From: Dehalococcoidia bacterium | GTDB lineage: Bacteria > Chloroflexota > Dehalococcoidia > Bin125 | DNA length: 64,000 nucleotides | Assembly: GCA_963555985.3 (NCBI GenBank) | Contig: OY820591.1 | Span: forward strand, 448,001-512,000 | Direction: 5' to 3' | In this document: positions 9,716 through 55,231 of the stretch, one piece after another | How the letters are laid out: each line of letters starts with the position of its first letter | Numbering within the stretch: the first letter of the stretch is position 1 | Made by a program: the position numbers and the translations under genes | The notes under the pieces: model-generated | The model's database searches: none | What the model saw: only the letters and a program-made list of their open reading frames with translations | What the model was told of the DNA's origin: nothing

Positions 9716-11614
9716 ATGACAGAACGCAACTATTGGCAGCGAATGCGACGGTCTCGCATGAGTCGGCGCGGACTCTTGCGGGCTTCGGCCCGAGCCGGGG
9801 TTGGTGCAGCCGGCCTTGCCCTGGTCGGCTGCGGCGACGATGACGACGACGCCGTCGCGCAGGTCCAGCAGCAGCAACAGCAGCAGGCTCAGCCCGCGGC
9901 TCAGGCGCAGCAGCAAGATCAGCAGCAGCAGGCCGCGCCCGCCCAGCAGCAGCAACAGGCCCAGCAACAGCAAGCCGAAGCGCAGGCGCAGCAGGCCGAA
10001 CAGCAGGAGCAGCAGGCGGCGGCTCAGCAGCAACAGGATCAGCAACAGGCGGTCGCCGCGGCTGATTCGGCGCGCGAAGGCGACACCGACTGGGAGCGCA
10101 CCGTCACCGTGGCGGTACCCAACGCGGTCGGCGGCCTCGACGTGCAGGCGCCGGGCAACTACACGCTCAAGTGGAACGGTCCGCTGCACTTCGATCAGTT
10201 GCTCCAGTACGACCTGGTCACCCGCGAGATCGTGCCGCATGTGGGGAACTTCGAGTGGATCGAGGACTTCACGGCCCTGCTCTGGCACGTCAATCCCGGG
10301 CACGCCTGGCACGATGGCACGCCGCTCACGGCTGAGGACGTCAAGTTCTCAATTGAGCGCGCCGGCGGTACTGCCGCGTACAACGAGAGCGGGACATACG
10401 AGACAGGGATCGCGTACATCATCTCCGCTGTCAACGGCACTGCGGAAGTGATCGACGACTTGACCCTGCGCCTGCCCGTCAATACTGACGTCACCGCTCC
10501 GGGCAGCGTTGGTACGACGATGCCGCTCGTCCCGAAGCACCGGATCGAAGAGCTGGGCGACGAGGGCTATAACCGCGACGGTTTGGCCAGCGGGCCGTTC
10601 CAACTCGCCAATTTCGAGCCTGACATCGAAGTCCGCAGCGTCCGCAACGACAACTATCCGATCGGCTACGAGAACCTGAACCGCAAACACCGCCCCTGGG
10701 TCAAGGAGATCGTGCAGTCGGTGCGGCCCGAGCCGGTCGCGCGACTGGCTGCGATCCAGGCAGGCGAGGCCGACGTCACACCGTCGCTTGAGTGGGAGTT
10801 GGTGCAGGAGTTCGTCGATGAGCCCGGCTACGAGGTGCTCTTCGACCCGGGCTGCTGCCCGCACACGATCTTCCCGAACACGCTGGTGCCGATGTTCGAG
10901 GACGGCTCCAACGCCTACCGCGACATCCGCGTGCGACAGGCGATGAACCACGCCGTTGACGTGGAGACGATCTACACCACGTTGGCAACCGGCCGCGAGC
11001 AGCGCGCCTACGGGATCGGCACGCGGCAACTTGGCGGGATGCAGCCCGAGCAGTCGGGTCCGCTGACGATGGAGTACGACCCTGAAAAGTCGGTCCAGCT
11101 CTTGGACGCCGCCGGCTACCCCGAAGGGTTCGAGTCGGACTTCTACGGCACCGCCGGCTTCTTCGCCTGGACCGACCAGATCGCGCTCTCGGTGCAGCAG
11201 TACCTGGATGTAGTTGGGATCCGGACGAACCTGCAACTGGATCCGCTGCCCGACTTCCGCGCGCGGATGGCGCAGCGAGACGTGCCCGGCTTGCATTACT
11301 ACTTCACCAACCAGTCGCCTGACCCGTTCCAGGTGATCAACGCCGAGGTGGCCGAAGGCGGCACGCTCTCGGTGGCGGAGTACCCCGGCTCGGGCATTCA
11401 GGAGTTGGTCGAGGCGCAGCGCTCGGAGTTCGACCCGGAGAAGCGGAAGCAGTATCTCAACGAGCTCGCCCAGCTGATCTACACCAACGCCTCCTGGCTG
11501 TTCCTCTTCGAGACCGTCGGTACCGGACTGATGCGCGACGACCTCGAGTGGGACATGAAGGGCAACTCACGCGACTACGGCGGCCTCTGGGGTATCCGGC
11601 CACTCGTCACCTAG
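9716..11614 (+). CDS. ABC transporter family-5 substrate-binding lipoprotein (Tat)
   Basis: SRRGLL twin-arginine motif, LVGC lipobox, Gln-rich linker. Family motifs WHDGTPLTAEDVKFS, SGPFQL and RVRQAMNHAVD. Confidence 0.92.
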   Translation: MTERNYWQRMRRSRMSRRGLLRASARAGVGAAGLALVGCGDDDDDAVAQVQQQQQQQAQPAAQAQQQDQQQQAAPAQQQQQAQQQQAEAQAQQAEQQEQQAAAQQQQDQQQAVAAADSAREGDTDWERTVTVAVPNAVGGLDVQAPGNYTLKWNGPLHFDQLLQYDLVTREIVPHVGNFEWIEDFTALLWHVNPGHAWHDGTPLTAEDVKFSIERAGGTAAYNESGTYETGIAYIISAVNGTAEVIDDLTLRLPVNTDVTAPGSVGTTMPLVPKHRIEELGDEGYNRDGLASGPFQLANFEPDIEVRSVRNDNYPIGYENLNRKHRPWVKEIVQSVRPEPVARLAAIQAGEADVTPSLEWELVQEFVDEPGYEVLFDPGCCPHTIFPNTLVPMFEDGSNAYRDIRVRQAMNHAVDVETIYTTLATGREQRAYGIGTRQLGGMQPEQSGPLTMEYDPEKSVQLLDAAGYPEGFESDFYGTAGFFAWTDQIALSVQQYLDVVGIRTNLQLDPLPDFRARMAQRDVPGLHYYFTNQSPDPFQVINAEVAEGGTLSVAEYPGSGIQELVEAQRSEFDPEKRKQYLNELAQLIYTNASWLFLFETVGTGLMRDDLEWDMKGNSRDYGGLWGIRPLVT

Positions 11615-13599: not shown

Positions 13600-13610
13600 G
13601 ACGCTGCACC

Positions 13611-13663
13611 AGAGAGTGGGTCCCACACAGAGAGTGGGTCCCACACAGAGAGTGGGTCCCACC
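13611..13663 (+). repeat. 18-bp tandem repeat x3 in the 5' UTR
   Basis: Two exact copies of AGAGAGTGGGTCCCACAC plus AGAGAGTGGGTCCCACC, directly before the ATG at 13664. Confidence 0.95.
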
Positions 13664-15550
13664 ATGAGCGAACAAAACTACTGGCAGCGGCTGCGGCGCA
13701 AGAGGATGTCGAGGCGCTCGCTCTTGCGCGCTTCCGCCCGCGCCGGAGTCGGTGCGGCCGGACTGGCGCTCGTCGGCTGCGGCGGCGATGACGACGACGA
13801 TGGGCAGCAGGCCGCCGCTCAGACTCAACAGCAAGCCGAACAGCAGCAACAGGCCGCCGAACAGCAGGCGATGCAACAGGAGCAGCAGGAGCAGACTCAA
13901 CAGGAGGCGGACGAGCAGGCAGCAGTCGCTCAGGCGCAGCAGCAGGCCCAGGCCCAGGCAGCTCAGGATGTGCGCCGCGGCGGTACCTGGAGGATTTCGG
14001 ACGCGTTCGCTCCGCAGTGGGGCTTCGACCCACTGGTGACTCCCTCGGGCGGTGACCACTACCAGTCGATCCCGATCTTCTACGACCGCCTGCTCAACTA
14101 CGACGCGCAGGGCGCAGCGTTGCCGATGCTCGCGGAGGCGTGGGAGATCCCCGACGACGTGACCTACGTGTTCAGCCTGCGACCGGGACTGACCTATCAC
14201 GACGGAACGGCCGTCGACGCCGCCTCGATCCAGACCAACATGGACCGAATCGTCAACATCGAGGAAGAGAGCGTCGAGGCGACGCCGAATCAACGTGCGG
14301 TCACGCTCGGTCAGACGATGGCAAACTCCGAGGCGATCGACGACGTGACCTGGCGGTACGTGGCCAACGAGGTCTTCGCGCCAACGCTGTCGCTGTTCTA
14401 CGGCAAACCGCCGGGCATCGCGCCGATTGCGCCCGACTCGTTTGACACCGCCGTGACGCATCCGGTCGGGGCCGGCCCCTTCACCTTTGACAACTACATC
14501 GAAGGTCAGGAACTGACCGCCACCAGGTTCCCGGACTACTGGAACGCCGAGAACATCTACTTCGACAACTACAGCTTTGAGATCCTGCCGGACTCGAACA
14601 CGCAGTGGTTGGCTTTCCTGGGCGGTGACCATGATGTGGTTCGTGTTCCCGGATCACTGGCTGCCGACGCCGACCAGATGGCGGACATCGAAGATGACGG
14701 CTTCGTCGTACTGGGCGACGTATCGAGCGTCTTCGTCCAGACCTGGTTCAATATCAATCCCAGCGGGCCGGAGGAGCTGACGATCTGGCGCGACCCGCGC
14801 ATGCGGCACGCGATCAACCTGGCGACCGACCGCCACGCGATCAACGACGCCGCCTTCAACGGGACCGGCGCGGCCTCGCGCGCGCCGATCGGCGTGACCA
14901 CGCCGCTGCTGCCCAAGGATGTCGACTGGTACGACGACTCGCCCAACCCGGCCGAAGCGGTCAAGCTGATCGACGCCGCCGGCTACACCGGTCAGGTGAC
15001 CGGCGACATGATGACCTACAGCATCGACCCACTCTATCTCGGTACGAGGCCGATGCACGCTCAGCTCGCGGAAGTCGGCATGGACTTCAACCTGGTTGAG
15101 GGCACGATCGCCGGCATCGTTGACCGCCTCTTCCAGGCGGAGGACTACGCCATCGCGGTACTCAGTTGGGAGTCGCCATTCGACCCGGATCAGATCCTGC
15201 GGCCGAGCATGAACGGACTGCGCGAGTGGTACTACAGCGGCGGGCGCGAGCAGTACGACGAGCTGCTGGCAGCCGGCAGCGAGTATGAGGTTGGTCTGGA
15301 AGAAGCGTCACGCCTGCAAGACCTGACGGCGCGCACGACGGACTTTGAGGAACGCGTGAAACGCTACGCCGAGTTCTTCGAAGTCTATGTCGAAGGCGCG
15401 TACACCGTGCCAATCATCCACTACCCGCTCAACTACGGATTCTCACCGGGGGTCAGACATACCGGGGACATCAACAGTCTGTTCCGAGGCTGCGATGGAA
15501 TCGGAGGGACGGCCGACATGCTGGCTGGGGTCTACAAGGTGGATACGTAG
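13664..15550 (+). CDS. ABC transporter family-5 substrate-binding lipoprotein (Tat)
   Basis: MSEQNYWQR..SRRSLL..LVGC, Gln-rich linker, PMLAEAWE, YHDGTAVDA, GAGPF, DPRMRHAINLA. Confidence 0.92.
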   Translation: MSEQNYWQRLRRKRMSRRSLLRASARAGVGAAGLALVGCGGDDDDDGQQAAAQTQQQAEQQQQAAEQQAMQQEQQEQTQQEADEQAAVAQAQQQAQAQAAQDVRRGGTWRISDAFAPQWGFDPLVTPSGGDHYQSIPIFYDRLLNYDAQGAALPMLAEAWEIPDDVTYVFSLRPGLTYHDGTAVDAASIQTNMDRIVNIEEESVEATPNQRAVTLGQTMANSEAIDDVTWRYVANEVFAPTLSLFYGKPPGIAPIAPDSFDTAVTHPVGAGPFTFDNYIEGQELTATRFPDYWNAENIYFDNYSFEILPDSNTQWLAFLGGDHDVVRVPGSLAADADQMADIEDDGFVVLGDVSSVFVQTWFNINPSGPEELTIWRDPRMRHAINLATDRHAINDAAFNGTGAASRAPIGVTTPLLPKDVDWYDDSPNPAEAVKLIDAAGYTGQVTGDMMTYSIDPLYLGTRPMHAQLAEVGMDFNLVEGTIAGIVDRLFQAEDYAIAVLSWESPFDPDQILRPSMNGLREWYYSGGREQYDELLAAGSEYEVGLEEASRLQDLTARTTDFEERVKRYAEFFEVYVEGAYTVPIIHYPLNYGFSPGVRHTGDINSLFRGCDGIGGTADMLAGVYKVDT

Positions 15551-29530: not shown

Positions 29531-30763
29531 CTAGTGCCGAAGCCCGCTAAACCCAGGACCCCGCCCCTTCTCCCAGACTTTCCCTCTCGCCAGCTCCTCG
29601 TTCAGATCAACGCCCCAGCCTGGCTTCGTCGGCAGCTCTAGGTGTCCGTCCACGATCTCGATCGCGCCGCCGGTCAGGTCGTCTTTCCAGGGCACGTCGT
29701 CGATGTCGATCTCCATGATTCGCACGTTCGGCACGGTCGCGCAGAGATGCAGCGATTGCATACTGCCGAGGTGTGAGTAGTAATTGTGCGGCGCGACGTT
29801 GAGCTCATAGCTCTCGGCCAGCAGCGCCACATCCCGCGAACGCGAGAACCCCTGCCAGCAGACGTCGATCATCACGTTGTCCATTGAGCGCTGCTCCAGG
29901 AACGGCATGTACTGGCGCACCGTGTAGAGGTTCTCGCCCGACGTGATCGGCACCGTCGTCGAACGCCGCACGTCGGCCAGCGCTTCCGCGTCGTACATGT
30001 CGATCTCGACCCACATCATCTCAAGATCTTCAAGCGTCTGACAGATCTGCCGAGCCGCCAGCGGCGTGCAGTTGAAATTGATGTCGAGCGCGATCTGCAC
30101 GTCCGGGCCCGCGCCCGCCTTGAGCGCGCCGATGTACTCGGGCACATGCCGCAGCACCGCCGGAGTGGTGTTGCTGTCGATGTTCTCCACCTCTTGCTGC
30201 AACCCAAAGGTGCGAGCAGGATCGCCCGGGAAGAGGACATTTGTCTTGAGCGCGTGGAAGCCCTTGCTGCGTACCTCTTCCCCCAGCGCGGTGACATCGT
30301 CCATTGTCCGGATCGGCGGCGCCCCGATCACCCAGTCGTCGCCGTTGTGCCACTTGATCTTGTCGTAGTTGCCGGCCCGCGAACTGCCGCAGTGCGACCA
30401 GTAGATCAACTGCCGCTCGCGGACAGGGCCGCCGAAGAGCGAGTAGACCGGCACGCCCAGCGCCTTGCCCTTGATGTCCCAGAGCGCCAGTTCGACCCCC
30501 GCGATCGCCTTCGCCACCACCCCGCCCGGCGACTGCCGCGCCATCCGATACATATCCCAATAGCGAGCCTCGACCGCGAGCGGGTCGCGGCCGATCAGGA
30601 TTGACTCCAGGTCGTTGATCGTTCCCACGATCCCGTACGGAGTGCGCCCGTCCGAGATCTCACCGTAGCCGGTGAGGCCGTCGGAGGTGCGTACCGCGAC
30701 GAACTGCCATGGCCGCCAGCCCGCGTCGACCACGAACGTCTCGATCTCTCGAATCTTCGTCAT
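29531..30763 (-). CDS. Mandelate racemase family enolase, tandem paralog of 28046-29278
   Basis: Same length (410 aa) and the same motifs, highly similar throughout. Confidence 0.9.
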   Translation of the reverse strand: MTKIREIETFVVDAGWRPWQFVAVRTSDGLTGYGEISDGRTPYGIVGTINDLESILIGRDPLAVEARYWDMYRMARQSPGGVVAKAIAGVELALWDIKGKALGVPVYSLFGGPVRERQLIYWSHCGSSRAGNYDKIKWHNGDDWVIGAPPIRTMDDVTALGEEVRSKGFHALKTNVLFPGDPARTFGLQQEVENIDSNTTPAVLRHVPEYIGALKAGAGPDVQIALDINFNCTPLAARQICQTLEDLEMMWVEIDMYDAEALADVRRSTTVPITSGENLYTVRQYMPFLEQRSMDNVMIDVCWQGFSRSRDVALLAESYELNVAPHNYYSHLGSMQSLHLCATVPNVRIMEIDIDDVPWKDDLTGGAIEIVDGHLELPTKPGWGVDLNEELARGKVWEKGRGPGFSGLRH

Positions 30764-30899
30764 TCACCTGTCTCCATTTCGGCGCCGGCCTGGAAGCGGC
30801 GGTTCCACCACCGCCCGCACCCCTGCGGAGGCGGCGCGCAAGCCGCTGATCGTCACCCGCGAGTCTAGGCTCGTGGCGGCTGCGGCCGCCGCGCTCACG

Positions 30900-31294
30900 C
30901 TAGGGCCTGTTCACACAACCACGAGCGCGGTCGGCCCGCACGCGCGCTGGTCTTGAGGCTGAGCCTCGGCGCTCCCTTCCCCGCCCTCCGCAACCGAGTC
31001 GAAACCGGGTATGCTCAGAACATATACACGCACGAATCCAATCGGAGACCGCTGTGTCCCACAAACGACTCGCTCCAAACCTGAACAGTGCTGGACATGC
31101 CCGGATTCTCCTGGAAAAAATCTGCCCGAATCGAGATCAATCCGGACAGATCTGGACAAATCTAGACAAATCTGGACAAATCCAGACCCGCGAACGCACG
31201 ATCCTCAGCGCTCACCAGGAGCTCCGCTCAATCCCTCCGAAATTCTCCCGCCAAACAGCGCCGATACACTTCGCGCAGTCTGAACACGCCCTAG
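30900..31294 (+). mobile_element. MITE-like element with IS5-like ends carrying a 10-bp periodic array (element A)
   Basis: CTAGGGCCTGTTCA (30900-13) and TGAACACGCCCTAG (31281-94) form an inverted repeat (13/14 match). No transposase inside. Confidence 0.6.
31141..31187 (+). repeat. 10-bp periodic tandem array (TCTGGACAAA-like)
   Basis: tccggacaga tctggacaaa tctagacaaa tctggacaaa tccagac, with degenerate units extending upstream to about 31080. Confidence 0.85.
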
Positions 31295-31324
31295 CATTCG
31301 CCGCCCGACCACGAGGAGATGCCC

Positions 31325-32722
31325 ATGCCTGATGCACTCTGGAAATGCACCGCCGTCGAGTTGGCCGCGCTGATTCGCGACCGTGAGGTCTCCAGCCGTG
31401 AGGTGATCGAGGCCCACCTCGACCGCATCGCCGAGGTCAACGGCCAAGTGAACGCGGTCACACTCGTGCTCGCAGAAACCGCGCTGGCCGGGGCCGACGC
31501 CGCCGACCGCAGCGAGAGCTCGGGTCCATTGCACGGCGTCCCGTTCACGATCAAGGAGAACATCGACTGCGTCGGCTCGCCCACCACCTCGGGGATTCCG
31601 GCCCTCGCCGACGCCCTGCCGCCGAGCGATGCGCCCGTCGTCGAACGGATGAAGCGCGCCGGCGCAATCCCGCTCGCACGCACCAACCTGCCCGAGATGG
31701 GTGGTCGCCTCGATACCGATAACCCACTCCGCGGCCGCACATTCAATCCCTGGAACCCCGCGCTGACTCCCGGCGGCTCGAGTGGCGGCGAGGCCGCAGC
31801 GCTGGCCACCGGCATGTCGCCGATCGGGCTCGGCAACGACATTCTCGGCTCGCTGCGCAACCCCGCCTACTGCTGCGGCATCACCTCGCTCAAGCCCTCG
31901 GCGGGACGCATCCCCTGCGTGCTCTCGATGGGCGTCGACGCCGGGATGGCCGTGCAGGCGATGCTGGTCGAAGGCCCGATGGCGCGATCCGTCGCCGACC
32001 TGCGCCTCGGCCTCTCCGTGCTCGCCGGCCGCGACGTTCGCGACCCGCGCTCCGTCGATGCCCCGCTCGAAGGCCCCGAACCGGCGGCGCGACAGGCGGC
32101 GCTGGTCACCGCGATCCCCGGCTTCGATCTCCCCGCCGTGACGGTCGCCGAGATCCGCCGTGCCGGAGAGGTGCTCGCCGACGACGGCTGGAGCGTGGAA
32201 GAGGTCGAGCCACCCGAGCTGGACCGAGTCAATGAGATCTGGGCCTATGTCATCGTCGCCGACCAGGACGAGCAATCGCTCCAGGAGCAGGAGGCGCTGA
32301 TCACACCGCAGCTCGCCGCCCTCCATCGACAGATCGGCGAGCGCATCGCCTCTGCGCCGTTGTCCAACTCCGTCGTACACGCGGAGCGTTCGCGACTGAG
32401 CCGCGTGTGGTCTGATTTCTTCGGCGCGTACCCCGTCGTCATCGGGCCTACCTGGACTTGCTTGCCGTGGCCGATCGACTCGGATCTGGATCCCGAAACC
32501 GGGATCGACACGACGCTCGGCACCGCGCATTTCATCAGCCCGGCCAACGTGCTTGGCCTGCCCGCCGTCGCGCTGGCCACCGGCGTCGCCGACGGTCTCC
32601 CAACCGGCGTCCAGGTCTACGCCGACCGCTGGCGCGAAGACCTCTGCCTCGCCGCCGCCGAACAGATCGAAGCGGCAAGCCCGATGCCGACACCGATCGA
32701 CCCCGTACCGCCGGGCGACTGA
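31325..32722 (+). CDS. Amidase-signature family amidase
   Basis: GPLHGVPFTIKENID, PGGSSGG and GNDILGSLRNPA (Ser-cisSer-Lys triad). GAGGAG RBS favours ATG 31325. Confidence 0.92.
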   Translation: MPDALWKCTAVELAALIRDREVSSREVIEAHLDRIAEVNGQVNAVTLVLAETALAGADAADRSESSGPLHGVPFTIKENIDCVGSPTTSGIPALADALPPSDAPVVERMKRAGAIPLARTNLPEMGGRLDTDNPLRGRTFNPWNPALTPGGSSGGEAAALATGMSPIGLGNDILGSLRNPAYCCGITSLKPSAGRIPCVLSMGVDAGMAVQAMLVEGPMARSVADLRLGLSVLAGRDVRDPRSVDAPLEGPEPAARQAALVTAIPGFDLPAVTVAEIRRAGEVLADDGWSVEEVEPPELDRVNEIWAYVIVADQDEQSLQEQEALITPQLAALHRQIGERIASAPLSNSVVHAERSRLSRVWSDFFGAYPVVIGPTWTCLPWPIDSDLDPETGIDTTLGTAHFISPANVLGLPAVALATGVADGLPTGVQVYADRWREDLCLAAAEQIEAASPMPTPIDPVPPGD

Positions 32723-36995: not shown

Positions 36996-38168
36996 ATGAA
37001 GATCACCAAGATCAGCGCCATCCCTGCCTCGCCGGGGACTACTGCCCACCCGATGTTCAACTTCCCGCCCTGGAACTTTGTCTTCGTCAAGGTCGAAACC
37101 GACGAGGGCATTGTCGGCTGGGGGGACGCGACCTGCGGGCCGATGGCGGTGGCCTCGTTGGTCGAGGAGTACGGCGGCATGATCGTCGGCGAGGATCCGT
37201 TTCGGATCGAAGAGCTGTGGCAGACGATCCACCACCGTTATTTCACGCGCGGCGGGCCGATCCAGAACAGCGCCCAGGCCGGGATCGAGATGGCGCTCTA
37301 CGACATTAAGGGCAAGGCCCTGGGCGTGCCGGTCTACGAGCTGCTGGGCGGCAAGATGCGCGACCAGATCTGGTGCTACGGCCGTTGGGACGGCCCCTCG
37401 CCGGAGAGCGCGGCGGAATTCGCGCTCAGCCAGCTCGCGCTGGGATTCACGGCGCTCAAGGGCGACCCGTTCGATCACCGGGGCCTGTTCATTTCGTACG
37501 AGGCCGAGAAGAAGGCGATTGACACCCTCGCCGCGGTGCGCGACGCGGTTGGCTTCGAGGTCGAATTGCTGGTTGAGGTGCATGGTCGCCTGACTCCGGC
37601 TGAGGCGATCCGGATCGGTAACGCGATGGAGGAATACCGGCCCTTCGTTTATGAGGAGCCGGTGCCGTTCGAGAACATCGACGCGATGGAGCAGGTGGCC
37701 CGCCACACCAACATCCCGATCGCTACCGGAGAGCGGATCTACAGTCCCTTCACCTACTTCGATCTGCTCCAGCGGCAGATCGTGGCGATGATCCAGCCCG
37801 ACATGATCCAGACCGGCGGGATCGGCCAGATGAAGCGGATCGCGGCGCTGGCTGAGGCGCAGTACGTCGGTGTTCAGCCGCACGCGATTCACGGACCGAT
37901 GGAAGTGCTCGCTGCGCTGCACGTTGACGCCTCGATCCCGAACTTCAAGATCCATGAGGGCGGCTCGCGCGCGTGGTTCCAGGATGCCTGCATCGGCGAG
38001 TTCCCGGCCCAGGTGGACGGCTACCTGTCGGTGCCCGAAGCGCCGGGCCTGGGGGTCTCGATCGACGAGGACTGGCTCGCCGCCCATCCGCCGCATCCCG
38101 AACCGGGCTGGGCGCCGGCGTTGGGGACGCTGCCGTCGAAGCAATTCAGCAAGGTCGCTTCGCCGTAG
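36996..38168 (+). CDS. Mandelate racemase family enolase (D-galactonate dehydratase-like, KxD)
   Basis: VKVETDEGIVGWGD, LKGDP, EVHGR, YEEP, TGER, QPD, PH, PGLG. Confidence 0.88.
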   Translation: MKITKISAIPASPGTTAHPMFNFPPWNFVFVKVETDEGIVGWGDATCGPMAVASLVEEYGGMIVGEDPFRIEELWQTIHHRYFTRGGPIQNSAQAGIEMALYDIKGKALGVPVYELLGGKMRDQIWCYGRWDGPSPESAAEFALSQLALGFTALKGDPFDHRGLFISYEAEKKAIDTLAAVRDAVGFEVELLVEVHGRLTPAEAIRIGNAMEEYRPFVYEEPVPFENIDAMEQVARHTNIPIATGERIYSPFTYFDLLQRQIVAMIQPDMIQTGGIGQMKRIAALAEAQYVGVQPHAIHGPMEVLAALHVDASIPNFKIHEGGSRAWFQDACIGEFPAQVDGYLSVPEAPGLGVSIDEDWLAAHPPHPEPGWAPALGTLPSKQFSKVASP

Positions 38169-38260
38169 GGCCTGATCCGGCGCGAGGGCGGGGAATTGCT
38201 GGGCAGCTGACGCGAATTGTCAGCCGTGGATGGGGAATTGTGCGCGAAGGCGGCGCGATC

Positions 38261-38320
38261 CTGTTTCAGCTTGTTTCATTCTGTTTCATTTTGTTTCAGT
38301 GTGTTTCATCTCGTTTCGGT
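38261..38320. repeat. 10-bp periodic tandem array (nTGTTTCAnn x6; element B)
   Basis: ctgtttcagc ttgtttcatt ctgtttcatt ttgtttcagt gtgtttcatc tcgtttcggt. Confidence 0.9.
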
Positions 38321-38463
38321 GGTGTCGGCTCTGTATGGCTCTGTCCGGGTGGTGTTGCGCCGTGTTGGGGATTCGAGTTCGAGCGCGCCGGGGAGTGTGC
38401 AGGCCAGGCTGGGTGGTCGTGCCGGGCCCCGCCGAGCGGCTGGAGCCGGGTCGCACGGAGGTC

Positions 38464-38492
38464 AGTATATACGTACAGGCGTACGATGGCAG
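38464..38492 (-). promoter_or_regulatory. Putative promoter with a LexA-like palindrome in its spacer
   Basis: Minus strand CTGCCA-N17-TATACT. Palindrome CGTAC-AGGC-GTACG at 38472-85. Confidence 0.5.
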
Positions 38493-38619
38493 GTGCGGGG
38501 TGGTGCGAGTGTTGCAGTGGCGACAGTCGGCTTGGCCGACGGATGGCTGCGCCGCCGATGTGCGCAGTCCCGAGCGAGCCTGCCCCGGCTTGAGCGCAGG
38601 GATGAGGTAGCCAGGCCGC

Positions 38620-38648
38620 TTGACAAGCAAAATTGAGCGCACTACGTT
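38620..38648 (+). promoter_or_regulatory. Putative sigma70 promoter of SBP operon
   Basis: TTGACA-N17-TACGTT. Confidence 0.6.
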
Positions 38649-38706: not shown

Positions 38707-40479
38707 ATGAGCGAGCGAAACTACTGGCAACGGATGAAGGGGCGTCGGTTGAGCCGGCGATCGCTGCTGCGAGCCTCGGCTCGCGCGGGGATCGGTGCGG
38801 GCGGCCTGATCCTGATCGGCTGCGGGGACGATGACGACGATGGCCAGCAGCAGGCGGCGCCGGCTGCGGCTCAGGCGCAGCCGCAACAACAGCAGCAGCA
38901 GGCTGCGCCCGCGCAGCAGCAGCAACAAGAGCAGCAGCAAGCCGCTCCGGCGCAACAGCAGCAAGAACAGCAGGCCGCCGTCGCTCAGGCTCAGCAGGCC
39001 GACGACGGCCCGCGGCAGGGCGGCAGGCTGATCGCCGGCGACACGACCAACTTCGAGGACGATGTGACGCTGCCCTACGCGATCGCTGAGGGCCGATTCA
39101 CTCAGCCGCCTGACGCTGGGATCTGGGACTGGTTGGCACAGCGCGGGGACTCGCTGGAGCCGGAGCCGCGACTCGCCGAGTCGTGGGAGCAGAACGCCGA
39201 CGCGACGGCCACGATCTTCAAGCTGCGTCCGGGCCTCGAATTCCACAACGGCAAGCCGCTCAACGCCGAGGCGGTCAAGCTCAGCTATGAGGCGATGAAC
39301 TGGGAGGACACGCCCAACAGCCAGGTGCGAGGGCTCGCAGGCGTATACCTCGAATCGATCGACGTGATCGATGATGTGACCGTGCAGTTCAACCATTCGA
39401 ACTGGCCGGGGCCGGTGATCTACGACCTGGTCACGTTTGCGCCGATCGCCGACTCTGACACGATCACGGCCTTGGCCGCGATGGAGGAGATCAATGGCAG
39501 CGGCCCGTTCAAGTTCGACTTCAGCGAATGGGAAGCGGGCGCGAAGTGGGTGTCGGTACCGCACGAGAACGGCTACCTGACCCCGCACCTCGACGCGATC
39601 GAATATCGCAAGATCCCAGACGAGGACACGATCGTGCTGGCGCTCGAGAGCGAAGAACTCGACATGGCCGTCATTCCGCTCCCGCAGTTCGACCGCCTGA
39701 GCCAGATAGAGCACCTGACCACCGATGTCGGGCCGGCATTCGGGTACTGGGTCGTCGGGCCGACGCAGACGGCGCTCGGCGGCGGTCACCCGGCGAACGA
39801 CGATCCGCGCTTCCGTCGCGCGCTGCAAAAGGCGATCGACCGAGAGCGCATCCATGAAGATGTCTTCTACGGCGTGATGCCGATTGCGAACCAGATGTGG
39901 CTGCCGACTTCGTCGGCGTATGACCCGCAGTACGACGTGGTCGCATATGACCCGGAAGGGGCGAGGGCGTTGCTGGAAGAGGCCGGTCTGTTGGGCACCA
40001 AGCTGGACATGCACATCTTCGAGGGCTGGCTCCCCGCCGGCGCGCCGGAGATCATCCAGGCGAACTTCAACGCCATTGGACTCGAGGTCACGATCAAGGT
40101 GATCGACCGGGCAGAATGGATCGAGCTCTTCCTGGCCGGCCAGATGCCCGGCTTGTACATGGCGAGCACGGGCTTCTTCTGGATGGAGCCAGAGACACTG
40201 CCGAACATGAACTATCAGTTCCGGCAGCCGGTCAACGCCGTGGCCGAGGTTTCGGACGCGTACGTCTCGATCCTGGAGGGATTTGCTTCGCAACCGACTC
40301 CGGCCGAGCGTCAAGAGTTGTTCGACCGCTGGAACCAGCTCTATTTCGACGCGCCGTGGTTGCTGCCGTACGCGGGCGCGGCCAACATCGGGGCCTATAA
40401 CCACAATCGCGTGGGCGGGTTCTACACCACGACCGCCTCCGGGAAAGTGCACAAGGAAGAGCTCTGGTTGAAGGCGTAG
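38707..40479 (+). CDS. ABC family-5 substrate-binding lipoprotein (Tat)
   Basis: SRRSLL, LIGC, Gln-rich linker, PRLAESWE, FHNGKPLNAE, GSGPF, DPRFRRAL. Confidence 0.92.
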   Translation: MSERNYWQRMKGRRLSRRSLLRASARAGIGAGGLILIGCGDDDDDGQQQAAPAAAQAQPQQQQQQAAPAQQQQQEQQQAAPAQQQQEQQAAVAQAQQADDGPRQGGRLIAGDTTNFEDDVTLPYAIAEGRFTQPPDAGIWDWLAQRGDSLEPEPRLAESWEQNADATATIFKLRPGLEFHNGKPLNAEAVKLSYEAMNWEDTPNSQVRGLAGVYLESIDVIDDVTVQFNHSNWPGPVIYDLVTFAPIADSDTITALAAMEEINGSGPFKFDFSEWEAGAKWVSVPHENGYLTPHLDAIEYRKIPDEDTIVLALESEELDMAVIPLPQFDRLSQIEHLTTDVGPAFGYWVVGPTQTALGGGHPANDDPRFRRALQKAIDRERIHEDVFYGVMPIANQMWLPTSSAYDPQYDVVAYDPEGARALLEEAGLLGTKLDMHIFEGWLPAGAPEIIQANFNAIGLEVTIKVIDRAEWIELFLAGQMPGLYMASTGFFWMEPETLPNMNYQFRQPVNAVAEVSDAYVSILEGFASQPTPAERQELFDRWNQLYFDAPWLLPYAGAANIGAYNHNRVGGFYTTTASGKVHKEELWLKA

Positions 40480-42606: not shown

Positions 42607-44439
42607 ATGGCCGAGCGAAACTATTGGACCCGAATGCGCCGAAATCGAATGTCGCGGCGCGGACTGCTGCGTGCCAGTGCGCGGGCTGGCGTCGGCGCGG
42701 CCGGACTCGCGCTGGTGGGCTGCGGCGATGACGACGACGATGGCCAGCCGGCAGCGGCTCAGGCGCAGCCGCAAGCTCAGGAGCAGCCTGAACAGCAGGC
42801 CGAACAGCAGGCGATGCAGCAAGAGCAGCAGACACAGACTGCCGACGAACAGCAGGCGCAGCAGGCGGCCGTCGCCCAGGCTCAAGCGGCCGGCGGAGCC
42901 AAGTTCGGCGGCATGGTTCAGATCGCGGGCGACGACGGCGGCCTGTTCGACCCCGCCGCGACCATTCACGGCGGCACCGACGCATCCATCTTCCAGTGTT
43001 TCGACTTCATCAACTACCTCGGCGCGGGCAACGAGATCACCGATGCGATGGCTGAGTTGCCGGAGATCGTCGACGAGACCAATTTCGTCTACCAGATCAA
43101 ACCCGACGTCTACTGGCAGGATCTGCCGCCGCTGAACGGGCGCCAGTTCACAGCAGAAGACGCCGTGTTTGGCTACGAACGCTTCGGTTGGGACAACCCC
43201 GAGTTCGTCTATCGAGATCGCTACGTGCTGGTTGAGAGTTTCGAGGCAGTCGACGAGCTGACGATGCACGTCCAGGCCTCGGAGCCGTTCGCGCCGCTGC
43301 TGGTGGCGATGGCGGAGACCGGCGCGCTGATGGTCGCGCGCGACATCGTCGACCAGTTCGGCGACGCCGAAGTCGGCAGCAATCCCGACCTCGTCATTGG
43401 TACCGGCTCGATGATGCTAGATTCGCGCGAGCCGGATGTCGAGACCGTGCTCAAGCGCAATCCGAACTACTACCGCCCGGCCCCCGAGGGCGGCACACTG
43501 CCTTATTTCGACGGCTACAACATCATCTGGGGCCTCGACAACGCGAACCGGATCGCGCAGTACATCGCCGGCAAGACCGACTTCCTCTGGTTGCAGTGGT
43601 ACGGCGAGCTGCAAGAGATCGAGACCGTCCAGGCGGAGATCGGCGAAGACTCAATCGTGGTGGTGCCCAACCCGGTCGCGTTCGGTCTGGCGACGCACGT
43701 GCACTGCGAGGTCGAACCGTACACCGATCCGCGCGTGCGCTTGGCGCTGCACCACGCCGTCAACCGGCCCGCGATCATCGCGACCACGCTCGGGGCCGGC
43801 AATATTGGCGGCCCCATCGCCGAAACGATCGCCCCCTACGGCTGGGGGGTGGACATCCTCACGCAGTTGCCCGGCTACCGTTCCGGCGACGAGCGCGAAG
43901 CCGACCTGGCCGAGGGCCGCAAGCTGCTCGAGGCGAGCGGCTACGACCCGTCGGCAGTGCCGCCGATGGAAATCTGGGACTGGGCCTCCGATCAGGGCCA
44001 GGTGTTGCAGCAGAACTTCGGTGAAGTCGGATACGAGGTCGAGATTCTCGAACTCACCACGGCCGACTCCCTGGCCGCCCGCCAGAACCGCGAGTTCTCG
44101 ATGATCACCTTGGGCCAGCAGGCCGCAGCGGACCCGGATCTGCTCTACAACGACCTGCACACCACCGGCGGCCAGAACTACGGCAACTTCTCCGACCCGG
44201 CGATCGACGAGATGCTGGTCAAGGGCCGGACGACGTTCAGTGTGGAAGATCGCAAGGCGATCTACGACGAGATTCAGACGATTCTGCTTGAGCAGTACGC
44301 CCCGAGGCTCTGGTGGCATTGGAGCCAGGCCACGATCGGACACCGCCCCTGGTTGCAGGGCTACTACCCGACGCCGGGTATTACGCCCACCAACCAGGTC
44401 ATGAACCAGTGCTGGTTCGACGACACGAGAACCATCTAG
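42607..44439 (+). CDS. ABC family-5 substrate-binding lipoprotein (Tat)
   Basis: MAERNYW..SRRGLL..LVGC, Gln-rich linker, PPLNGRQFTAEDAVF, DPRVRLAL. Confidence 0.92.
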   Translation: MAERNYWTRMRRNRMSRRGLLRASARAGVGAAGLALVGCGDDDDDGQPAAAQAQPQAQEQPEQQAEQQAMQQEQQTQTADEQQAQQAAVAQAQAAGGAKFGGMVQIAGDDGGLFDPAATIHGGTDASIFQCFDFINYLGAGNEITDAMAELPEIVDETNFVYQIKPDVYWQDLPPLNGRQFTAEDAVFGYERFGWDNPEFVYRDRYVLVESFEAVDELTMHVQASEPFAPLLVAMAETGALMVARDIVDQFGDAEVGSNPDLVIGTGSMMLDSREPDVETVLKRNPNYYRPAPEGGTLPYFDGYNIIWGLDNANRIAQYIAGKTDFLWLQWYGELQEIETVQAEIGEDSIVVVPNPVAFGLATHVHCEVEPYTDPRVRLALHHAVNRPAIIATTLGAGNIGGPIAETIAPYGWGVDILTQLPGYRSGDEREADLAEGRKLLEASGYDPSAVPPMEIWDWASDQGQVLQQNFGEVGYEVEILELTTADSLAARQNREFSMITLGQQAAADPDLLYNDLHTTGGQNYGNFSDPAIDEMLVKGRTTFSVEDRKAIYDEIQTILLEQYAPRLWWHWSQATIGHRPWLQGYYPTPGITPTNQVMNQCWFDDTRTI

Positions 44440-44550: not shown

Positions 44551-46398
44551 ATGAGTGAGCGAAACTATTGGAAACGGATGAGCCGCAATCGCCTGTCGCG
44601 GCGCGGATTGCTCCGCGCCAGCGCCCGCGCCGGTGTCGGCGCGGCGGGACTGGCGCTCGTCGGCTGCGGCGACGATGATGACGACGGCCAGCCCGCCGCC
44701 GCCGCTGTCCAACAGCAGCAAGAGCAGCAGGCGGCCCAGGTGGAGCAACAGGCCGAGCAGCAAGCCGCCCAGCAACAGGCCCAGACCCAGACCGCCGAAG
44801 AACAGCAGGCCCAGCAGCAAGCTGCCGCTCAGGCGCAGGCCCAGGCGGCCGACGGACCCAAGCAAGGCGGCATCGTCCGGATCGTGATGTCGGACGGTGG
44901 CATCTTCGACCCGGCGATTGTGATCCACGGCGGCACCTACGCCGGCGTGCACCAAATCTACGACTGGGTCAACTACCTCGACGAGGGCTTCGTGATCACT
45001 TCGGGGATGGCGGAGTTGCCGGAAGTTGTGGACGAGCTCAATTTCGTCTACTCGATCAAACCGAATGTGTATTGGCACGACAAGTCGCCTCTGGACGGGC
45101 GCCAGTTCACCGCCGAGGACGCCGTCTTCGGACTTGAGCGTTTCGGCTTCGATAATCCGGAGTTCGTGTTCAAGGATCGCTTCTCGATCGTCGAAAAGTT
45201 TGAAGCGACCGACCAACTCACGATGCACGTGGAGGCAGGTCAGGTCTTCTCGCCGATTTTGACGGCGATCGCCGAAGACAACATGCTGATGGTTTCCCGT
45301 GACGCGGTCGAGGCCTTCGGCGACGAAGGCTTGTCGACGGACTTCGAGGCGCAGATCGGCACGGGCGCATTCATGGGACTCTCACGAGAGCCGGAGGTCG
45401 AGCTCAGGCTGGAACGGAATCCCAACTATTACAAGGAGGGGCAACCCTACTTTGACGGCTACAAGGGCATCGCCCTGCCTGACGACGCTCTGCGCACCGC
45501 CGCCTTTGCGGATGGCCAGATCGATTTCCTCGACTACCAGTGGACCGGTAGCCAAACCAATCTCGAAGAGGCGGCCTCGGTGCTCGGCGAAGACGAAGTC
45601 GTGGGCGTCCAGAATCCGGTTACCTACGGTATGGCCACGCACATCCATTGCGAAGTCGAGCCCTATACCGACCCTCGCGTCCGCACTGCTGTGCATCTGG
45701 CCGCCGACCGCGAACAGCTCATTGCGCTCTCTCAGGGTTCGCTGGTGATTGGCGGCCCCATCGCGGTCGCAATCGCACCGTATGGCCGAAGCGAGGACGA
45801 GCTTCGGCAGCTGCCCGGCTACCGCTCGGGCGATCTCCGCCAGGAGGACCTGGCCGAATCGCGCGCCATGCTCGATGCGGCCGGCGTCGACCTCAACGGC
45901 TTCCCACCGATGGACATCTGGGCGCCGAGCGCGTCGGACTACGCCCAGGTGCTACAGCAGAATCTCGCCGAAGTAGGCATCAACATCGACATCAACGAGT
46001 TGACCACCACCGACGCGCTGGCCGCCCGTCAGAACCGTGAGTTCACCATGATCATGCTCGGTCAGCAGGGAGCGTCCGACCCGGATCTGCTCTACAACGA
46101 CCTGCACACCACCGGCGGTCAGAACTACGGCAACTTCTCCAACCCCGAGTTCGACGCGATGGTCGAGAAGGGCCGCTCGGTCTTCGACGTGGAAGAGCGC
46201 AAGGAGATCTACGACGAAGCGCAGGACCGTCTGCTCAACGAGTGGAACCCTCGCCTCTATTGGTCCTGGAGCAACGCGGTCGTCGCCTTCCGTCCGTATC
46301 TGAGAGGATTCCGTCCGACACCAGGACCGACCGCGTCGAACGCCATCATCTGGGGCATGTGGTTCGATCAGATCCCCGATGGCGCCGAAGAATTCTAA
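44551..46398 (+). CDS. ABC family-5 substrate-binding lipoprotein (Tat), tandem paralog of 42607-44439
   Basis: Shared blocks FDPA..IHGGT, ATH.HCEVEPYTDPRVR and DPDLLYNDLHTTGGQNYGNFS. Confidence 0.92.
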   Translation: MSERNYWKRMSRNRLSRRGLLRASARAGVGAAGLALVGCGDDDDDGQPAAAAVQQQQEQQAAQVEQQAEQQAAQQQAQTQTAEEQQAQQQAAAQAQAQAADGPKQGGIVRIVMSDGGIFDPAIVIHGGTYAGVHQIYDWVNYLDEGFVITSGMAELPEVVDELNFVYSIKPNVYWHDKSPLDGRQFTAEDAVFGLERFGFDNPEFVFKDRFSIVEKFEATDQLTMHVEAGQVFSPILTAIAEDNMLMVSRDAVEAFGDEGLSTDFEAQIGTGAFMGLSREPEVELRLERNPNYYKEGQPYFDGYKGIALPDDALRTAAFADGQIDFLDYQWTGSQTNLEEAASVLGEDEVVGVQNPVTYGMATHIHCEVEPYTDPRVRTAVHLAADREQLIALSQGSLVIGGPIAVAIAPYGRSEDELRQLPGYRSGDLRQEDLAESRAMLDAAGVDLNGFPPMDIWAPSASDYAQVLQQNLAEVGINIDINELTTTDALAARQNREFTMIMLGQQGASDPDLLYNDLHTTGGQNYGNFSNPEFDAMVEKGRSVFDVEERKEIYDEAQDRLLNEWNPRLYWSWSNAVVAFRPYLRGFRPTPGPTASNAIIWGMWFDQIPDGAEEF

Positions 46399-54314: not shown

Positions 54315-54406
54315 GGTCTGCTCCTTGTGCTTGGGGAATCTGGTGAGGTCAGAGTAGAGGCTGTTCGGTTTGTTCGGCTGTGTTCGATTGCGTTTGGCGC
54401 CGGGAT

Positions 54407-54793
54407 GTCGGCGCAGGACGCGGCGAGATTCCCGCGGCGAGCGCGGGAATGACGGAGATGGGCGGTGGAAAGTCGAAAAACTTTTTGGGCGATCCAGTTT
54501 GGAAGCCCAGTGTTTTGCGGGAGATCGTGCGGTTGGGGTGGAAGGTGGCGGAAAGTCCTGGATGGTCGAAAGCGTTCGGTTGTGTTCGATTCCGTTCGGC
54601 GTCGGTGCAGGACGCGGCGAGATTCCCGCGGCGAGCGCGGGAATGACGGAGATGGGCGGTGGAAAGTCGAAAAAACTTTTTGGGCGATCTGGTGCGGAAA
54701 TCCAGTGTTTTGCGGGAGATCGTGCGGTTGGGGTGGAAGGTGGTGGAAGGTTCTGGATGGTCGAAGGTGGTCGATTTTGTTCGATTCCGTTCG
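54407..54793. repeat. About 194-bp tandem duplication containing a REP palindrome and 10-bp periodic units (element C)
   Basis: Units start at 54407 and 54601 (GTCGG(C/T)GCAGGACGCGGCGAGATTCCCGCGGCGAGCGCGGGAATGACGG...). A partial third unit lies at 54372-54399. Confidence 0.9.
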
Positions 54794-54910
54794 ATTTCGT
54801 GCGGTCTCGTTCGGTGTCGTTTGAGTCTGGTGCGTTGGGGTCGGGAGCGGTCGCTGGCAGTTGGCTGCGACGGGTGAGCGGGCATGAGACGGCTCCGGAT
54901 TCAGGTGTCA

Positions 54911-54945
54911 CGTACAAATGTACTGTGTAGATCGCGATCGGTCAA
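54911..54945 (-). promoter_or_regulatory. Putative promoter with a LexA-like box over the -10
   Basis: Minus strand TTGACC-N17-TACATT. CGTAC-AAAT-GTACT at 54911-24. Confidence 0.55.
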
Positions 54946-54964: not shown

Positions 54965-55231
54965 AGACGTTTGCAACAGTCGGAGTTCTCCGTCATTGCC
55001 GCGCTTCGACGCGGCAATCTCGCTGTCTGAGCGACGACGGTGCAGATAACAGCGAGTGATCCCCGCCTTCGCGGGGACAGGCTCCGCGGCAAGCGCGAGT
55101 ATGACGGAGTGGGGAAAGGGAGTGGTCGCCCGCGTGCAGCGAGGACTGGGATGTGCGTTGGGGTACTCCCTTTGCCCTCACCCTAGCCCTCTCCCAGAGG
55201 GAGAGGGAACAGCTGGATTTTGCAAACGTCT
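54965..55231. mobile_element. MITE-like element containing several palindromic units
   Basis: Perfect 12-bp inverted ends AGACGTTTGCAA/TTGCAAACGTCT. Internal hairpins GTCATTGCCGCG..CGCGGCAATC, TCCCCGCCTTCGCGGGGA and CCCTCTCCCAGAGGGAGAGGG. Degenerate extra ends extend to about 55316. Confidence 0.65.

Follow-up and report, generated by a model that had tools for sequence, protein, structure and literature searches.

An IS5-ended MITE with a variable 10-bp array and its strand-asymmetric relatives in an uncultured Dehalococcoidia bacterium

In this article, I will discuss a short mobile element with IS5-type ends, here called A, and the larger set of intergenic repeats around it in the genome of an uncultured, sponge-associated Dehalococcoidia bacterium of the phylum Chloroflexota. 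The window, meaning the whole 64-kb stretch of DNA that was analysed, corresponds to C1:448001-512000 of a metagenome-assembled genome (3.33 Mb, 65% GC, 11 contigs; completeness 96%, contamination 7.5%), which is labelled G000 in a scheme where G-numbers stand for genomes, C-numbers for contigs of this own genome and L-numbers for loci from related genomes. Three intergenic elements lie in it: element A (30900..31294, plus strand), 395 bp long including a CTAG at each end, at the amidase locus; element B (38166..38617, minus strand, its end approximate), ahead of a solute-binding-protein gene; and element C (54355..54945, minus strand). An original prediction, made from the letters alone, had given the three one oriented layout in which a promoter, a 10-bp-period array and an IS5-like end follow one another, and the arrays themselves proved real, since Tandem Repeats Finder (TRF, run with a score threshold of 40) finds them in A, B and C alike.

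Element A is a MITE with the ends of an IS5-family insertion sequence

A is closed by 18-nt inverted repeats that are 89% complementary, are each bounded by CTAG and read CTAGGGCCTGTTCA, the left one at 30899..30916 (target CTAG 30900-30903) and the right one at 31278..31295 (second target copy CTAG 31291-31294), both given on the plus strand; this agrees with the CTAG-bounded inverted ends that had been predicted, and end-like motifs stand at 38166 in B and at 54355 in C. A blastn search of the own genome returns 13 A-family copies, all on C1, of which 11 are full length and two truncated, with 88-94% identity to A and a length range of 385-406 bp; all 11 full-length copies retain the ends, most of them with CTAG on both sides, and the exact 14-mer of the end occurs eight times in the 3.33-Mb genome against about 0.03 expected (26 times at one mismatch or fewer). 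The target is CTAG, with either CTAG or the central TA duplicated, and the deviant flanks of two copies, TGAG...CGAG and CTAG...CTAA, are a better fit to a 2-bp central duplication than to a 4-bp one. Empty sites complete the picture: L002, L006 and L009 hold a single CTAG at the place of the window's CTAG-element-CTAG, the orthologous intergenic region is without A in relatives whose amidase is 89-93% identical, and contigs from a related population span the site without the element, joining 30884 to 31305 and 30903 to 31300. The gene to the left of the amidase (29531-30763, minus strand), which is single in the window, is present as two tandem paralogues in relatives such as L001, L002, L003 and L010.

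The same ends lead to a candidate partner in related genomes. The family sample comprised 61 genomes, 26 with the arrays discussed below and 35 without, the related genomes being non-independent samples, and the control for every motif was its reversed motif or pattern. The 15-nt end, at one mismatch or fewer, was found in 46 of the 61 genomes with up to 76 matches per genome (reversed control 0-2 per genome), and end pairs about 845 bp apart traced L129, an 844-bp, CTAG-flanked insertion sequence (IS) with ends as in A. Its two overlapping open reading frames (ORFs) encode DUF4096 (orfA; PF13340, E 5.8e-25) and DDE_Tnp_1 (orfB; PF01609, E 5.6e-16, together with PF13586, E 2.9e-9), an architecture which I take to be typical of the IS427 and IS1031 groups. 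The group traits of IS427/IS1031-type insertion sequences are those laid down in ISfinder, and L129 resembles them in its 844-bp length, its overlapping DUF4096 and DDE_Tnp_1 ORFs and its insertion at CTAG; unlike those groups, A itself encodes no transposase. This 844-bp IS resides in G058, G021 and G055 with the same 15-16-nt ends as A; L130 and L131 are additional copies, and L132, judged by reading its sequence, appears degenerate. The same ends also bound array-free elements of about 290 bp (L133, L134) of the kind called MITEs (miniature inverted-repeat transposable elements) and, in the own genome, several heterogeneous short elements. A is thus short and transposase-free, with terminal inverted repeats (TIRs), a target duplication with its empty site, dispersed copies and ends shared with an IS, and it is a MITE, a derivative with no coding function whose terminal repeats are those of the 844-bp IS5-family insertion sequence. 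The predicted non-autonomous IS5-type mobile element is borne out by these copies, inverted ends, CTAG target, empty sites (a check that had been proposed) and matching IS in relatives. A transposase supplied in trans would recognise the GGGCCTGTTCA ends and excise an A-type element, which would then be pasted into a CTAG with duplication of CTAG or its central TA.

Between its ends (all on the plus strand), A has a block, GAAACCGGGTATGCTCAGAACATATACGCGCAC, that is conserved in all A copies and contains TATGCT (31011..31016), which had been put forward as the -10 hexamer. A Shine-Dalgarno-like GGAGAC followed by GTG at 31054 (31040..31056) starts a 92-codon ORF, 31054-31332, and a promoter-like TGGACA-18-AAAAAT (31092..31121), a consensus match found once against 0.0 expected in shuffles, stands immediately before the array. 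As to the three -10 hexamers first proposed, the consensus scan does pick TATACT in B and TACATT in C, whereas in A it picks TGGACA-18-AAAAAT and not TATGCT; each of A, B and C has one such promoter-like site, which precedes the array on the same strand, where 0.0-0.1 would be expected. The array itself (31139..31187) is made of AATCYRGACA units (TRF, 4.4 copies, 85% matches, with its end put at 31182 or 31187), and is followed by an imperfect inverted repeat CGCACGATCCTC...CAGGAGCTCCG (31196..31230) and by a AATTCTCC box (31242..31249) that is present in 13 of 13 A copies. By length, the copies form three classes separated by exactly 10 and 20 nt within the array, corresponding to 3-6 units, so that A's internal array is a variable-number tandem repeat (VNTR) gaining and losing whole units, and its units stand head to tail with no spacers, as the repeats of a CRISPR (clustered regularly interspaced short palindromic repeats) array do not.

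T1, B, C and an older repeat superfamily

Across its promoter-like block and its array region, A shares homology with a dispersed repeat, some 330 nt long and here named T1, and the GAAACCGGGTATGCTCAGAACATATACGCGCAC block is the counterpart of the T1 promoter-like block. The T1 set consists of the 31 blastn rows, out of 49, whose alignment covered 170 nt or more and began no further along the query than position 200; these copies are 68-81% identical and share the conserved blocks GAAC-N4-GTYC-N-TATAnnAT and CCATGACC, two GGAC arrays, and AATTC boxes. Three such boxes, about 21 nt apart and downstream of the arrays, constitute what I call the Type I module, which belongs to T1, and where a T1 end-like motif is present it sits about 40-50 nt after them. 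The Type II module instead has a CACGATCTCC...GGAGATCGTG hairpin, to which the CGCACGATCCTC...CAGGAGCTCCG repeat of A is equivalent, then an A-run with ATTCTCC and then CTGAACACCTGAAC. A-like and T1-like copies are also found in G018 and G068, and at one locus of the former (L081; G018:C1, ~3083250-3083330) an A-like element adjoins a sequence that, judged by eye, resembles a tRNA gene. The GAAC-N4-GTYC of the T1 block, next to its TATA-rich hexamer, is a candidate LexA-type operator; the exact GAAC-N4-GTTC palindrome occurs in two T1 copies among 15 intergenic sites and in neither the recA nor the lexA upstream region. A separate repeat, in which a hairpin CTCTCCCCCCGCAnTGCGGGGGGAGAG leads into GTCACGnAGTGAC and then a G-run, is seen 20-40 nt before the T1 left boundary in many copies (for example at C1 563036, 2723742 and 3096), and intergenic DNA in this genome is a patchwork of different types of repeat.

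B, whose units are of the TGAAACA kind, belongs to the T1 superfamily but has diverged: its left part matches the T1 left block, its 10-bp array lies at 38262..38317 (minus strand; TRF, 5.6 copies, 78% matches), and beyond the array on the same strand follow three AATTC boxes about 21 nt apart, within 38166-38260. Its promoter-like site, CTGCCA-17-TATACT (38464..38492, minus strand), comes from the consensus scan, and the element extends past 38492, where it had first been thought to end, to about 38617. B is antisense to both flanking genes, its TAGGGCCTGATCC end overlapping the stop codon of the upstream gene, and it lies between that stop codon and a TTGACA-N17-TACGTT (38620..38648, plus strand) which is outside B, was read by eye and was not called by the scan; this site fits a family pattern seen upstream of hppA orthologues and, going by its sequence, is likely the native promoter of the downstream solute-binding-protein gene. 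In the syntenic relative G013, the corresponding spacer is 165 nt long and without B.

C is a composite Type II module in which a promoter-like site, arrays, a CCGCACGATCTCCCG motif and palindromes resembling the REP (repetitive extragenic palindromic) type come together, with an internal 195-bp tandem duplication and an end-like motif 42 nt upstream of the start of a minus-strand gene. Its main 10-bp array (54771..54821, minus strand; TRF, 5.1 copies, 80% matches) has CGAACnnAAT units, TRF reports shorter ones at 54362-54386 and 54573-54598, and a near copy of C, 92.9% identical over 294 nt, lies upstream of the enolase gene at C1:965598-966236. The promoter-like site, TTGACC-17-TACATT (54917..54945, minus strand; consensus scan), has the architecture of the recA promoter of the own genome, where TTGACA-N17-TACATT is followed by CGTTC (C1:1783700-1783760), and both C and a MITE at C1:2234210 have TTGAC(C/T)-N17-TAC(A/G)TT followed by TGTAC; the GTAC/GTTC half-sites around the -10 might make up an operator common to these promoters. 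The REP-like palindrome, GAGATTCCCGCGGCGAGCGCGGGAATGACGG, about 50 bp long with GGTAT or GGCAAT core variants, is found at 54409-54457, 54603-54651 and 55000-55090; it is very abundant genome-wide and often sits within or beside MITE-like elements, and C as a blastn query returned 429 rows, in which a single site may appear two times over, as C contains the palindrome in two copies.

Together, these comparisons place A as the youngest branch of an older, diverged and lineage-specific superfamily that takes in T1, the Type II modules, B and C. The superfamily is strand-asymmetric, intergenic, rich in C and A and poor in G and T, and its members share a promoter-like block, a Shine-Dalgarno-like site with a start codon, arrays, and either phased AATTC boxes or a hairpin. 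The oriented layout first noticed in three elements therefore does recur, B and C being diverged relatives in larger repeat families, that is, older C/A-rich families that are mostly without intact ends.

Period-10 arrays across the genome and its relatives

Arrays of this period are far more widespread than the A copies. The genome-wide scan that had been suggested gives 114 TRF rows at period 10, an excess over the neighbouring periods 8, 11, 13 and 14 (5, 17, 20 and 25 rows), and after merging there are 99 period-10 arrays, 86 of them outside A copies. Their units vary (GGACAAATCT, TGAAACAAAA, CGAACAAAAT, CGAACGGAAT, TGAACAAACC, CGTCCAAAAT and others) around a common YGNMCAAA-like core. Downstream of the 86 non-A arrays, a motif of the CGCACGATC type is found in 14 (control 0/86) and one of the AATTCTCC type in 39 (control 3/86). 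The end motif follows eight of the 86 arrays against one in the control, so the predicted association of arrays with ends does exist, but the link is not obligate, and the two features separate across genomes.

The orientation of the arrays is strongly biased. A simple GC3-based caller of my own, whose calls are crude, gave 2764 genes and a coding share of 86%. Once 16 arrays whose |A-T| was under 4 had been put aside, the 83 kept comprise nine that are genic, one at a contig edge, 18 in divergent, five in convergent and 50 in co-directional regions. In 44 of these 50 the A-rich strand is the sense strand (binomial p = 3e-8), as it is for 17 of 21 co-directional T1 copies and six of seven A copies, and seven arrays fill short spacers between a stop codon and the next ribosome-binding site, all seven in the sense orientation. 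The genes downstream of arrays are diverse (rpsD, rplS, eno, hppA, sufB, pth, tmk, ahcY, asd), and Pfam annotation of the 40 genes at the shortest distance, among the 62 with sense arrays, revealed no functional theme common to them. The array strand contains 36-41% C and 18-24% G, where intergenic DNA in general has 33% and 30%, so the arrays, once described as purine-rich, are better characterised by A far in excess of T inside C-rich, G-poor elements. The same lean is visible among 876 co-directional spacers, of which 95 are strongly A+C-rich on the sense strand vs 23 with the opposite bias. A replication-strand account of the orientation bias finds no support here: the cumulative GC skew does not resolve into two clear arms, and in each 250-kb bin the genes are split about 50:50 between the strands.

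Among related genomes, a pattern of three GRACA-core units at one mismatch or fewer was found in 26 of the 61 family genomes, belonging to genera g1, g7 and g8, with up to 246 matches per genome (controls 0-3), and in two of 144 genomes from other families of the class, with a single match each. At three orthologous loci, namely the amidase, hppA and solute-binding-protein spacers, the elements are specific to the own genome.

The window and its assembly hold other repeats that deserve mention. At 13610-13662, an 18-bp unit (CAGAGAGTGGGTCCCACA) containing the palindrome GTGGGTCCCAC is repeated in tandem, three times and perfectly. Only 2 nt separate these repeats from the ATG of a gene for a solute-binding protein whose leader is twin-arginine-like, and they look like a triple operator or an array of leader hairpins. 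CAG/GCA-rich arrays (9866-10048, 13826-13959, 38862-38997, 42782-42867 and 44710-44826) code for linkers, rich in Gln and Ala, that directly follow the signal peptide in several paralogous solute-binding proteins, and do so in a G013 orthologue as well. In addition, some small contigs near-exactly duplicate stretches of C1 (C2:767 = C1:3068853; C6:7446 = C1:1906837; C10:36887 = C1:1832130) and could represent variant strains or duplication during assembly, in keeping with the contamination figure.

What the arrays may do

The explanation that I favour overall, and consider probable, joins MITE A and its repeat superfamily to an orientation filter with some co-option. The elements would insert or grow within transcribed DNA, in leaders and in the spacers of operons, where the C/A-rich strand would yield a weakly folding RNA that is tolerated and the complementary G/U-rich strand would be selected against. 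In favour of this stand the sense arrays that fill stop-to-ribosome-binding-site spacers, the rpsK-rpsD spacer described below, and the RNA of A, which folds weakly in the sense orientation and strongly in the antisense one. I propose only tentatively, and with less than even confidence, that this filter is the main reason why the elements run co-directional with neighbouring genes, and it is possible, but more doubtful still, that on top of it some copies have gained a use, serving as mobile cassettes of promoter and leader or as bent DNA upstream of genes.

Several observations weigh against this explanation. The own genome has no PF01609 match, tblastn with both IS ORFs finds nothing there, and blastn of the IS against it gives a single weak match of 67 nt, while its eight TIR pairs 0.7-3.5 kb apart each have at least one weak end; the predicted IS5 transposase with matching ends therefore exists as the 844-bp IS of relatives and not in this assembly. 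Mobility of A would then be historical here, or else the IS is unassembled (the genome being 96% complete in 11 contigs), and, because the assembled genome no longer holds the IS, the 13 A-family copies, whose divergence from A is 6-12%, have probably become fossils unable to move. T1 mostly lacks ends: its left inverted repeat is found in none of 22 anchored copies, nine of the 31 being unanchored and unscored, and its right IS5-end-like motif, within four mismatches, in two of the 22, so that a spread of the whole superfamily as IS5-type MITEs is not established. Arrays and IS5 ends are not co-distributed across the 61 family genomes, G068 having 40 array matches, in the same T1/Type II modules, and no end matches, and G060, G061, G074, G067 and G024 having 54-76 end matches (76 in G060) and no arrays. 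The rpsK-rpsD spacer, which measures 4-14 nt in distant genera and 32-68 nt, C/A-rich, in closer ones, is 103 nt long with a 10-nt array here, and looks like an expansion in situ within an operon transcript, not an insertion. Furthermore, T1 copies that are 70-80% identical overall retain conserved blocks and also an ATG, which points to a positive function over mere tolerance. Finally, the gene calls are crude, and the duplication of C1 by C2, C6 and C10 inflates the array and T1 row counts by 2-3.

Now considering what such a positive function could be, the arrays and AATTC boxes might act at the level of DNA, as a helically phased cis-element, bent or wrapped by protein, that was spread by MITEs upstream of promoters, either as an upstream activator or as a platform for a regulator binding direct repeats; this is possible, although I doubt it. 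Such an activator would resemble the 3' end of IS5, where a permanent bend and a site for integration host factor (IHF) activate a downstream promoter in a phase-dependent manner, as set out by Zhang and Saier (2009, PMC2753651). The likeness, of transposon-borne phased DNA near an IS5-type end that can influence a host promoter downstream depending on orientation and phase, would be a functional analogy only, and, unlike the IS5 bend region, the arrays here are tandem repeats of variable number. Across some 280 nt of the T1 consensus, A/T content does have a sharp period of 10.5 nt, with a power of 4.6 where the next unrelated peak reaches 0.9, and phasing is equivalent in A (10.4 nt) and in the 95 nt after the B array (10.5 nt), each reached by none of 500 shuffles; outside its array, however, A has no significant phasing, the observed power being reached by 40 and 112 of 500 shuffles. 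Within the units, a GRACA core is retained at constant spacing, the remaining positions being variable, and native promoter-like sequences lie close by, TTGCCC-N17-TACCCT downstream of the T1 copy at hppA and TTGACA-N17-TACGTT abutting B, but B is antisense to both its neighbours, seven of the 31 T1 copies sit between convergent gene ends, and several arrays of the CGAACACCAG type, which lack an A-tract, occupy the space between a stop codon and the next ribosome-binding site, where no promoter fits.

Alternatively, and in my view unlikely, the element could function as an RNA leader in which a promoter, a Shine-Dalgarno site and a start codon produce a long, C/A-rich, weakly structured transcript whose translation matters rather than its peptide, for example by preventing Rho termination of a C-rich, G-poor leader or by coupling ribosomes to the next gene. 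Translation signals are well kept: all 13 A copies have GGAGAC-N4-GTG/ATG at the head of an ORF that is 72-117 codons long, the ATG at the T1 anchor is retained in 26 of 31 copies with CCATGACC among the best conserved blocks, and copies in G018 and G068 have strong Shine-Dalgarno sequences (AGGAGG or AAAGGAG, 7-10 nt before the ATG), although this site is weak in the T1 of the own genome. Two A copies lie 30 nt upstream of a gene with their ORF stopping 7 nt past the called start codon, arrays adjoin ribosome-binding sites in operon spacers, the sense strand has about twice as much C as G, and the genome encodes Rho (PF07497, 92 bits), but the link to Rho is one that I infer, and a canonical sigma-70 -35/-10 is found within 260 nt upstream of just 9 of 62 sense arrays. 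The reading frame after the array also differs among copies, and the encoded peptides are unconserved. These same frames bear on the original suggestion of a low-complexity peptide at 31054-31332 or a small RNA, either of which is very improbable: the open frame in all 13 copies is what speaks for a peptide, but this sole ORF of the A family runs in three frames past the array, owing to 10-nt and 1-nt indels, its shared N-terminal part has many amino-acid changes, and the T1 ORFs likewise have no consistent frame after the array. Since changes in array length shift the 31054 ORF into three frames, no conserved peptide is encoded. As for a structured RNA, the sense strand of A has a fold energy of -64.1 kcal/mol and a z of -0.5, compared with -111.1 kcal/mol and a z of -2.1 for the antisense strand, the sense z of B is -0.3, and Rfam gave no match at gathering score in the 64-kb window; the frame shifts among copies and the insignificant folds largely rule both readings out. 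Less likely than the RNA leader, and speculative, is the broader idea that certain genera of this sponge-associated family have evolved genome-wide, sense-oriented leader or intercistronic modules with GRACA-core units exactly 10 nt, one helical turn, apart, spread by IS5-type MITEs and by expansion in situ and read by a dedicated DNA- or RNA-binding factor for a new kind of global control; the readers may include a direct-repeat-binding regulator, Rho or ribosomal protein S1, acting at the layer of transcription, termination or translation.

Several known systems offer points of comparison. Correia elements, also called NEMIS (Neisseria miniature insertion sequences), and REP sequences with their mosaic form BIME (bacterial interspersed mosaic element) are abundant, short, non-coding intergenic repeats that are co-transcribed and orientation-biased and form hairpins from palindromes; the elements here differ in being strand-asymmetric, with a weakly folding sense strand and tandem 10-bp units. 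The closest named precedent is BrickBuilt, a MITE of Porphyromonas gingivalis with IS5-family-like terminal repeats, a trapped, spacer-less 23-nt tandem repeat and promoter elements inside (Klein et al. 2015, PMC4596501), so the original statement that no named element has this layout does not hold, and the general layout is not new. Like BrickBuilt, which has multiple intergenic copies, many with degenerate or missing ends, A contains a spacer-less tandem repeat of variable copy number between a leader and a tail. The likeness is one of kind, not of membership: the BrickBuilt unit is 23 nt long, against 10 nt, or one helical turn, here, and its promoters were assayed, whereas those described above are consensus matches. 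Unlike BrickBuilt, furthermore, the repeats here form sister families with different units and the same period, have a C/A-rich strand asymmetry and a sense bias, also occur as arrays outside any MITE, in operon spacers, and live in an uncultured Chloroflexota host. The full-text literature search returned no description of MITEs in sponge Chloroflexi and, beyond BrickBuilt, none of the layout.

These findings document an active-looking IS5/MITE system, together with a VNTR-bearing MITE, in an uncultured lineage of the Chloroflexota, and arrays that are lineage-specific, strongly oriented with transcription and placed before housekeeping genes (rpsD, rplS, eno, hppA, sufB, pth). Should it be true that a cellular factor reads the arrays, they would mark a new regulatory layer; should they be merely tolerated selfish DNA, they would provide a clean case of strand-asymmetric composition enabling repeats to colonise transcribed spacers. 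Either way, the arrays break short-read assemblies, and their long spurious ORFs may get annotated as genes.

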